Shown piece by piece: positions 6,940 to 8,010 of a DNA stretch of 11,287 nucleotides. This DNA is from a virus. Where the stretch lies: UHGV virus genome UHGV-0262291. One strand, 5' to 3'. A model generated the notes under the pieces. It made no database searches. It was not told the origin of the DNA and worked only from the letters and a program-made list of their open reading frames with translations. The translations under genes were made by a program, and so were the position numbers. Numbering within the stretch: position 1 is the stretch's first letter; each line of letters begins with the position of its first letter.

Positions 6940-8010
6940 TTACCCCCTGAAGCCCGGCGGAATTTCGTTATCCGGTTCAGTAATATGATTCACACAACGC
7001 TGGTTGTTCGTGCCGCTTACCGGGAGAAACCAGGGGTTCTCAAAATTCCGGTCCGGTCCAAAAAACGTCGTCGCTCGCTGAACAAATTCCGTTCCCGCTT
7101 TCCCGGTAGCCGCCAGGTATCTTGCGTAACGCCTCACGCCATCCAGCATGGCCTCTGGTGGCACCCCCTCGCGTAATCTGGCCTTCCAGGCACTGAAAGC
7201 GGATTTCTTCGGGTTTGCTCCGGCACGCAACGGGTACTCCCGCCAGACCTGTTCGAACACATCCGGATAATCCACTCGTCCCACAGACTGACCGGTGTTT
7301 TCCGGGACTACCCGATCGGCTTCCCGCTGAATGGCGGAATCGGCTTCAGGCTGCTGAAGTTGGTGTGATTGCTCCTGCCTTGCGGTCATCACCTGCTGCA
7401 CAGCGCCCGAATCGGCTTTCAGCGCATACGCTGAATCGGCTTCCGGTGTCGTGCCTGCTGGCTGACCGAGATTGACGGTCTGAACATCCCCTGCCTGGTT
7501 CGTGGCGTTTTTTACGCCATGGACCATAGTGTTTTGATCTTCTTGATCTATATCTTTATCTGTATCTTTATCTGTCGTGACTCGTCGTGACATGTGCGTG
7601 ACATTTCGTGACTCGCCGTGACAATCGCCATTTTGTTCCCGCTTTCTTTCCCTCTCTCGCTGCGCCCTCTTGCGCTCTGCCGGAGATTTTGCGGTTTGCG
7701 AAATATTGCCGTTGTCCTCTTTCAGCACCTGGCGTTTTTCCCATCCAGTGATTAAATCACCATCAAGTACCCGCCCCTGCATCGTCTGCAAAATTGAATC
7801 AATTACCTCTTCTGTCACGTCGAGCGCACTTGCCAAATCTTCTGTCGTGACATCAATGTGACCTCGCGTGACATTTCGTGACGCGCTCACCAGGAGGTGG
7901 ATATATACTGCCATCACTGTTGCAATTGGCTGCCCTGACACCCTGGCAATTGTTCGCCACTTAGGGTCATTTGGCATGTCATGCCATAATCTGAGCCAGG
8001 CGTTAGCCAT
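6940..8010 (-). CDS. Replication initiation protein with DnaT-like (primosomal protein I) C-terminal domain; contains the candidate origin
   Basis: The C-terminus ...VNHITEPDNEIPPGFRG closely matches the E. coli DnaT C-terminus as recalled (...[17 protein letters not shown]). Two CGTGAC iteron clusters lie inside the gene, as ori-lambda lies inside O. The ATG at 8010 has GAGG 5 nt upstream; the ORF track starts at a GTG at 8016. Confidence 0.65.
   Translation of the reverse strand: MANAWLRLWHDMPNDPKWRTIARVSGQPIATVMAVYIHLLVSASRNVTRGHIDVTTEDLASALDVTEEVIDSILQTMQGRVLDGDLITGWEKRQVLKEDNGNISQTAKSPAERKRAQRERERKREQNGDCHGESRNVTHMSRRVTTDKDTDKDIDQEDQNTMVHGVKNATNQAGDVQTVNLGQPAGTTPEADSAYALKADSGAVQQVMTARQEQSHQLQQPEADSAIQREADRVVPENTGQSVGRVDYPDVFEQVWREYPLRAGANPKKSAFSAWKARLREGVPPEAMLDGVRRYARYLAATGKAGTEFVQRATTFFGPDRNFENPWFLPVSGTNNQRCVNHITEPDNEIPPGFRG
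7551..7623. repeat. Iteron cluster 1: two tandem 12-bp AT-rich repeats followed by five CGTGAC direct repeats at 10-11 bp spacing (candidate origin)
   Basis: TATCTTTATCTG at 7551..7562 and 7563..7574; CGTGAC at 7576, 7586, 7597, 7607 and 7617. Confidence 0.6.
7814..7882. repeat. Iteron cluster 2: four (C/T)GTGAC repeats at 9-11 bp spacing plus one inverted copy
   Basis: CGTGAC at 7846, 7866 and 7876; TGTGAC at 7857; inverted GTCACG at 7814..7819. The 15-mer GTGACATTTCGTGAC occurs in both clusters (7598..7612 and 7868..7882). Confidence 0.55.

Follow-up and report, generated by a model that had tools for sequence, protein, structure and literature searches.

A solo replication initiator of an Escherichia coli lambdoid prophage ends in a short C-terminal tail shared with DnaT

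The 11,287-nucleotide stretch of virus genome UHGV-0262291 considered here (hereafter the window) is the immunity and early-right region of an Escherichia coli lambdoid prophage of the Qin/DicB type. Following the cro and YdaT-like genes of its early-right operon is a gene (Table 1) whose product matches PHROG 3729 ('replication initiation protein') over its full length (E=6e-255), belongs to a cluster of more than 5700 member sequences and carries the RefSeq name 'phage replisome organizer' (WP_139618609), as anticipated by an original prediction that had been made from the DNA alone and had called it a replication initiator. The protein is a lambda-O-like initiator of the 'replisome organizer' class and of the solo kind, which has no loader gene beside it. 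Judging from its homologues, it is assembled from exchangeable modules, namely a helical N-terminal domain (N1), a disordered linker, a compact helical domain (C1) and a C-terminal tail (T1) that it shares with the primosomal protein DnaT.

The initiator terminates in ...QRCVNHITEPDNEIPPGFRG, and the tail is followed by the stop codon (ITEPDNEIPPGFRG-stop; in peptide form ...VNHITEPDNEIPPGFRG). The original prediction, that these last residues match the C-terminus of DnaT, is borne out by several comparisons. The initiator and E. coli K-12 DnaT (translated from NC_000913) agree at 13 of their final 20 positions and at 10 of the final 12, with both proteins ending at the stop. The NCBIfam DnaT model NF002770 aligns its positions 156-179 with residues 335-358 of the initiator (E=0.0018, 17.9 bits). 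In phmmer searches of PDB sequences the Klebsiella DnaT 6aep was matched (E=0.007, 24 residues), along with E. coli DnaT 2ru8 and chain 9zbt_D of a preprimosome from 2026, the DnaT chains being aligned only over their last 21-24 residues. The initiator also agrees with the tail consensus [VIL]S[EQ]PDxxIPxGFRG obtained from 107 DnaT orthologues, whose identity to the E. coli protein is 71% or higher in every case. A scan of 596 Gb of species-representative genomes used a degenerate DNA pattern that encodes PDxxIPxGF[R/S]G with TAA, TAG, TGA or TGG next; among the matches listed about five were stray, and the rest were Enterobacterales loci in which the motif ends either DnaT or a prophage initiator. 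Given that the pattern is almost confined to these two kinds of protein, the tail match is not due to chance.

The similarity to DnaT is confined to this tail, and the predicted DnaT-like domain at the C-terminus could not be recovered. Pfam searches with the whole protein and with both halves detected no DnaT (PF17948), DnaD, DnaB_2 or Phg_2220_C domain at E<=10, and the C-terminal 140 residues gave nothing meaningful in Pfam even at that threshold. A DnaT-family profile match for the C-terminus thus exists for the NCBIfam model, over the tail, and is absent for the Pfam DnaT domain. DnaT residues 1-155 stayed unaligned in the NCBIfam and phmmer comparisons and the N-terminal oligomerization domain of DnaT was not found; where DnaT has an acidic PriB-binding linker (Asp66/Asp70), the initiator linker has an acidic run with no alignable similarity to it. 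A comparison by hhalign of the C1 profile with the DnaT C-terminal domain profile aligned 32 columns (AWKARLREGVPPE...ATGK with LWGVALREPVTTE...AEGK) at 20% probability and E=1e-3, which is suggestive but too weak for a claim of homology. Fold searches found no DnaT for the initiator, the full-length Foldseek search being uninformative because half of the model is disordered. Classification of the initiator as a DnaT was accordingly rejected: its score lies far below the equivalog cut-off of NF002770 (201 bits), it lacks PF17948, the DnaT N-terminal domain and linker, and an adjacent dnaC, and it resembles DnaT in the tail only.

C1, which may faintly resemble DnaD, is very common in phage initiators: in a set of 1.84 billion representatives, 4052 clusters match it at E<=1e-3. 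The DnaT-type tail ends 14 of the 149 best C1 relatives. Across these relatives (proteins P0121-P0269; loci L170-L194) C1 bears at least five recurrent and unrelated C-terminal tails, of the types IPxGFRG, LDCEEWQS...DDE, HSGFxxRDYGxTxxPxWAKG, ...LPDWLKD and ...RGESMxxYIxRIQ.

At the other end of the protein, N1 is probably a winged-helix origin-binding domain. Its match to Pfam PF09681 (Phage_rep_org_N) extends over profile positions 1-119 of 121 and is sub-threshold (E=0.017, 15.5 bits against a cut-off of 23.3). The gene itself contains two clusters of GTCACG iterons (Table 1). The window contains 13 copies of the complementary CGTGAC where 4.5 would be expected; 0 of 200 shuffles have as many as 13, and nine of these 13 sites fall in clusters A and B plus one inverted copy. 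Cluster A is the probable core of an origin situated within the initiator gene, and by analogy with the lambda origin the A+T-rich stretch beside it is a candidate unwinding element. The repeat layout is kept in all N1-type genes examined, including those of phage Tritos and of a locus where N1 is joined to PF17948 and followed by a lambda-P-like gene (L318), and N2-type and ydaU-type genes lack it. N1 travels with GTCACG iterons regardless of the C-terminal module attached, and we infer that this domain recognises the repeats. At the start of the linker are SRNVTHMSRRVTT, a peptide encoded by the iterons, and an acidic run, DKDTDKDIDQEDQ. In translation the iterons yield the recurring peptides NVT, RVT and DVT, and diverged N1 homologues show GVTQSNA at both places; this difference in the repeat peptide suggests that the iterons and the N-terminal domain co-evolve.

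Homologues of the initiator show free recombination of modules. N1 (MANAWLRLWHDMPNDPKW...) is combined with C1 and the DnaT-type tail in the window. Serratia has it joined to C1 plus an acidic tail, and in O157-type prophages it precedes a genuine PF17948 DnaT domain and an acidic tail (...EALDCPDWCDD), with a lambda-P-like gene (PF06992) directly next; a sister module with N1, the same iterons and PF17948 is seen at L318 3001-4492 (proteins P0057, P0094 and P0095). C1 with its tail likewise follows N-terminal modules of at least two other kinds (P0032, P0119 and phage 75/02 Stx). Given that the PF17948 domain without the tail pairs with a lambda-P-like gene, it is the tail, and not the DnaT domain, that DnaC tracks. 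On this comparison the DnaT domain proper and the DnaT-type tail are separable modules with different partners. The arrangement as a whole is the lambda O pattern, in which the origin lies within the gene, N-terminal domain and iterons vary together, and a change of C-terminal module goes along with a change of loading partner.

The central 2.6 kb of the window (6000-8600) has a megablast match in 4189 of 5426 complete E. coli genomes, with at least 80% coverage in 716, and a prophage inserted beside ompW in strain O17_K12a has 98.5% identity to the full window. In the stretch examined, this prophage has annotated lambda-like terminase, portal, capsid and tail genes without pseudogene flags. 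In strain AST46 the prophage is decayed, with pseudogenes for RusA/methylase and for capsid and tail proteins (compare L001 15640-16285). Copies of the prophage stand at differing stages of decay.

Consistent with the original prediction, no helicase or loader gene follows the initiator. Four reference proteins (the DnaC and DnaB of E. coli, a phage-encoded DnaC and a lambda-P-like protein) served as queries in six-frame phmmer searches, with Pfam spot checks in addition. None of the four had a match in the window at E<=10, and at E<=1 there was none in the O17_K12a prophage, the decayed AST46 copy or the full 46-kb sequence of Escherichia phage Tritos; no other protein of the window matches a helicase, loader or primase. 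The next gene, which had been described as coding for a 140-residue helix-turn-helix protein, is of that length and encodes a DUF977 protein, whose only helix-turn-helix signal is a sub-threshold match to PF01418 (HTH_6; E=0.0035, 17.7 bits against a cut-off of 28.3). This gene fills the slot where sister phages have dnaC. In Tritos, the initiator is nearly identical (95.7% over the C-terminal 140 residues) and the same kind of 140-residue gene comes next. Solo initiators with the DnaT-type tail are found in the sequenced phages Tritos, mEp460, ST64B and mEp460_ev081, those of mEp460 and ST64B having C1 followed by ...DYSQIP[AT]GFRG. The 'primosomal protein I' of mEp460_ev081 (L006 3098-4063) has unrelated N- and C-terminal helical domains, an identical tail (...ISEPDTEIPPGFRG) and no dnaC, which indicates that the tail moves between initiator scaffolds. 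An element that encodes neither a loader nor a helicase must depend on the helicase-loading machinery of its host. Solo initiator modules without a loader were reportedly described by Weigel and Seitz (2006).

The genes that follow the tail in other genomes were surveyed in IMG/VR loci and in a census of the tail motif; all counts from both refer to the matches listed, which are phylogenetically clustered and uncorrected for linkage. A first IMG/VR scan returned near-identical copies only, and single-protein scans were added for diverged tail classes. In the near-identical lineage, where C1 and tail are at least 95% identical, 11 of 80 loci have a DnaC homologue of 246-250 residues (E about 1e-75 to E. 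coli DnaC) 6 nucleotides past the initiator stop, and the remaining loci have DUF977 or another small gene. An E. coli-type DnaC begins at -4 to +2 nucleotides in 73 of 80 loci of a diverged tail-bearing lineage and comes next in both loci of a further one (2/2). In total, 86 of 162 viral loci have a dnaC homologue of the E. coli type after the tail. The same succession is seen in Shigella phage 75/02 Stx, where 'primosomal protein I' precedes DnaC, and in the Rac element of E. coli K-12, where YdaU (DUF1376; L316 2120-3730) ends in ...LPDSAIPPGFRG / ...VSLPDSAIPPGFRG and the DnaC-like YdaV starts 6 nucleotides later. The motif census comprises 82 bona fide DnaT proteins, 75 of them with dnaC next, and 34 non-DnaT proteins, of which 25 adjoin DnaC, one a P-like gene and none DnaB. 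The non-DnaT members are of the C1 type, or have a DnaT C-terminal-domain core without the DnaT N-terminal domain, or match neither, so that at least three kinds of domain precede the tail.

C1 initiators with other tails adjoin distant IstB-like loaders (273-300 residues, E from 1e-28 to 1e-33), mostly together with a DnaB-type helicase; the HSGF...WAKG tail type, for instance, is followed by an IstB-like loader and a DnaB-type helicase. At other C1 loci without the DnaT-type tail a Toprim-AAA primase-helicase comes next, and in some no loader was detected. No loader was found after genes combining C1 with the acidic tail (T2). Among the single-protein scans, the T4 query gave three loci and the T5 query found no loci in IMG/VR. 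A general tail code with one partner per tail type was considered and rejected, as the acidic T2 precedes a lambda-P-like gene when it stands on PF17948 and no loader was found after it when it stands on C1. Among the matches listed, the DnaT-type tail pairs with a DnaC of the E. coli type or lacks a loader altogether, and in no case does it pair with a private helicase.

Together these observations lead us to propose, with confidence and doubt in about equal measure, that the initiator binds its own iterons and that its tail couples it to host DnaB-DnaC, with PriA and PriB being dispensable. The N-terminal domain would bind the GTCACG iterons within its own gene and the adjacent A+T-rich DNA would open. 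The DnaT-type tail, possibly with C1, would then link the initiator at the origin to a loader of the DnaC type, in the form of DnaB6-DnaC6, by the same logic by which the lambda O C-terminus captures P-DnaB. Host DnaC would load host DnaB at the phage origin, and PriA and PriB would not be required. The lineage appears to have lost a private dnaC, and as host DnaT carries the same tail, a tail-bearing phage might be able to dispense with one. It is the gene context that points to a physical contact of the tail with DnaC or DnaB-DnaC and to independence of PriA and PriB.

A wider and distinctly more tentative version of this proposal holds that the tail serves as a transferable docking peptide for E. 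coli-type DnaC or DnaB-DnaC, that it constitutes the link of DnaT itself to the loader, and that dnaT and dnaC were domesticated together from a prophage cassette of the ydaU-ydaV type. Enterobacterales dnaC was domesticated from a phage gene (PMC5109545), and the literature consulted on this domestication treats dnaC alone; the presence of the tail in the YdaU-YdaV cassette suggests that dnaT and dnaC may have been acquired as a pair. Furthermore, as the peptide is common to DnaT and to otherwise unrelated prophage initiators, mostly with a dnaC-type gene next outside the near-identical lineage, the tail, rather than the N-terminal domain of DnaT, becomes the candidate for this link.

Several points weigh against coupling through the tail. 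The N-terminal domain of DnaT, and not its tail, has been proposed (not demonstrated) to recruit DnaB/DnaC (PMC13377028), and a direct contact of DnaC with PriA, PriB or DnaT has never been demonstrated (PMC11087952). Removal of the last 18 residues converts DnaT from a trimer to a dimer, according to the summary of Szymanski 2013 in PMC5314882, and removal of residues 154-179 lowers its affinity for single-stranded DNA as well as its Hill coefficient and cooperativity (PMC4132743). The adjacency of tail and dnaC could partly reflect linkage and shared ancestry of a dnaT-like-dnaC cassette, and about half of the tail-bearing viral loci listed have no dnaC.

These truncation phenotypes are what would be expected if the tail were a self-association latch only, with C1 oligomerizing, possibly on single-stranded origin DNA, with DnaB-DnaC being recruited by other means (DnaA, transcription or C1), and with the adjacency to dnaC arising by common descent. 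We regard this alternative as rather doubtful. It accommodates the constant presence of a small helical domain ahead of the tail and the AlphaFold2 (AF2) models, in which the tail block of the C-terminal part, modelled as a monomer, has a predicted local distance difference test score (pLDDT) of about 79 against less than 55 in the loop preceding it. A tail latching onto C1 only would not, however, be expected where the same C1 bears at least five unrelated tail types, nor on at least three different preceding domains. The pairing of the tail with loaders of the E. coli DnaC type, and never with phage DnaB, among the matches listed, and the sister protein with a true DnaT domain and no tail, also speak against it. 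The latch and the coupling to DnaC are in any case compatible and not mutually exclusive.

The original prediction routed replication through the PriA/PriB primosome of the host by mimicry of DnaT. In such a scheme the tail would let the initiator enter the PriA-PriB preprimosome as a DnaT mimic, for example by docking PriA, and loading would be dependent on PriA and PriB. In the preprimosome structures the C-terminal domain of DnaT docks PriA and its acidic linker (Asp66/Asp70) contacts PriB, filaments of the three-helix C-terminal domain take over lagging-strand single-stranded DNA, and the 640 A2 interface between this domain and PriA is described as conserved and 'highly hydrophobic', its residues being unnamed in the text (PMC13377028). 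Of the hydrophobic segments in the C-terminal region of DnaT the tail is conserved best, the phage has no loader of its own, and the acidic run of the linker could in principle imitate the PriB-binding linker of DnaT. Nevertheless, the parts of DnaT used for binding PriB, for forming filaments on single-stranded DNA and, tentatively, for recruiting DnaB/DnaC are not detectably conserved in the initiator, the PriA-docking C-terminal domain is not alignable either, and the close succession of tail and dnaC in phages is left unexplained. Moreover, as the initiator has iterons of its own, the structure-specific recognition of forks by PriA is not logically needed. We therefore find no positive support for mimicry of DnaT and judge this route unlikely. 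It is highly improbable that the tail is a functionless relic of a prophage left replication-defective by the loss of dnaC, since, despite the visible decay of some copies such as AST46 and the dnaC still present in 11 of the 80 sister loci listed, the tail is kept in diverged loader-less lineages with sequenced phages (mEp460, ST64B, ev081 and Tritos), the head and tail genes of the O17_K12a prophage carry no pseudogene flags in the stretch examined, and the initiator cluster and its E. coli carriers are numerous (above 5700 members; 716 complete genomes with at least 80% of 6000-8600).

The initiator can be set beside several known systems. With lambda O/P it shares the early-right position after cro and cII-like genes, a two-domain build, an origin in its own coding sequence made up of phased iterons and A+T-rich DNA, a ren-like gene next, an N-terminal domain that sets origin specificity and an exchangeable C-terminal module that correlates with the loader. 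It differs in having no detected sequence similarity to lambda O and no P gene, in having C1 plus the DnaT-type tail as its C-terminal module, and in its presumed partner, a DnaC-type loader (phage-encoded in relatives and presumably that of the host here) in place of P. E. coli DnaT (NF002770, PF17948) has the same tail and a small helical domain about 20 residues upstream of it, and relatives of the initiator have a dnaC-type gene next; the initiator, unlike DnaT, is twice as long, phage-encoded, equipped with an origin-binding N-terminal domain and iterons, and without dnaC next to it. Rac YdaU-YdaV and the 'primosomal protein I'-DnaC pair of 75/02 Stx have the same tail (...EPDTEIPPGFRG in 75/02) and cro/YdaT-type genes upstream, and the C1 of 75/02 is 72% identical to that of the initiator; they differ in the 246-248-residue DnaC homologue that comes next, in lacking GTCACG iterons and in their N-terminal domains, which are DUF1376 in YdaU and N2 in 75/02. 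DnaD and DnaD-like replication proteins and the SPP1 G38P/G39P 'replisome organizers' of Firmicutes are also among the closest systems. DopC of Cellvibrionales and Oceanospirillales (Brezellec et al. 2017, PMC5509034) is an O-like protein whose C-terminus is reported, from an HHpred match to PDB 2ru8, to be DnaT-like, and chimeras of an O-like protein with DnaT_C thus have a precedent in print; DopC is, in contrast, domesticated, chromosomal, without iterons and paired with the lambda-P-like DopE, and is closer to the module combining N1, PF17948 and a P-like gene.

In view of DopC and of database names such as 'primosomal protein I' and 'DnaT-like ssDNA-binding domain-containing protein', a bare DnaT-like ending is not new. 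In the literature searched we did not find a portable tail in place of a domain, the close and specific association of such a tail with dnaC of the E. coli type, or the exploitation of host DnaC by loader-less phages. How PriA-PriB-DnaT recruits DnaB-DnaC is described as unknown in papers of 2024-2026, and the tail pattern offers a concrete test. If the tail is indeed the missing connection from DnaT to DnaB-DnaC, it would be of high interest to the field of replication restart; if it is only an oligomerization latch, what is left is a mosaic initiator of the ordinary kind. Coupling to host DnaB-DnaC would explain how a common family of E. coli prophages, present in hundreds of complete genomes and with relatives in Stx phages, can replicate without a private loader or helicase. 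The initiator would also be a clean natural example of lambda-O-style modularity, with the N-terminal domain and iterons defining the origin and the C-terminal module the choice of loader.

Table 1. Coordinates of the initiator gene, its modules and repeats, and of the other genes in the window
Feature	Position	Strand	Remarks
Replication initiator gene	6940-8016 or 6940-8010	minus	GTG start, 358 aa, or ATG start, 356 aa (form of the Prokaryotic Genome Annotation Pipeline, PGAP); stop codon 6940-6942
Module N1 (about aa 3-129)	7630-8010	minus	helical N-terminal domain; AF2 helices 6-80 and 112-129, pLDDT 63-85
Linker (aa 130-245)	7282-7629	minus	disordered, D/Q/T/A-rich; AF2 pLDDT <50; length differs among homologues
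C1 domain (aa 246-334)	7015-7281	minus	compact three-helix domain plus short helix; motifs FExxWxxYPxRxGxNxK ... FFGPDRxFExxW
DnaT-type C-terminal tail, T1 (aa 335-358)	6943-7014	minus	core EPDNEIPPGFRG encoded at 6943-6978
Iteron cluster A	7576-7622	minus (coding)	five GTCACG; spacing 10/10/11/10 nt
Iteron cluster B	7846-7882	minus	GTCACG, GTCACG, GTCACA, GTCACG; spacing 10/10/11 nt; 229 nt upstream of A
A+T-rich stretch	7525-7575	minus	73% AT (whole gene 46%); directly downstream of cluster A
LexA-like repressor gene	8712-9485	plus
cro/DicC-like gene	8504-8719	minus
YdaT-like gene	8082-8507	minus
DUF977 gene	6477-6899	minus	next gene, 140 aa; PF06163 E=2.7e-29; PHROG 142 'Ren-like exclusion protein'
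Zinc-ribbon protein gene	6063-6476	minus	PHROG 1621; conserved in phages
PHROG 1714 protein gene	5284-5637	minus	conserved in phages
hokD/mokW-type type I toxin open reading frame (ORF)	3782-3994	minus	opposite-strand ORFs overlap; 3561-3807 listed with this site
Q-type antiterminator gene	1086-1907	minus	PF03589
DNA methyltransferase ORF	134-511	minus	partial at window edge
Other genes		minus	several small ORFs, DUF551, DUF968/HNH, RusA

Among the remaining genes of the window, those for the zinc-ribbon and PHROG 1714 proteins sit just downstream of the initiator, and their products are the sole candidates for an unrecognised replication accessory factor; a wholly new type of loader, unlike the four reference proteins, might likewise be encoded by small ORFs such as these. 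The Q-type antiterminator carries an inserted DnaJ-like CxxCxGxG zinc-finger region.

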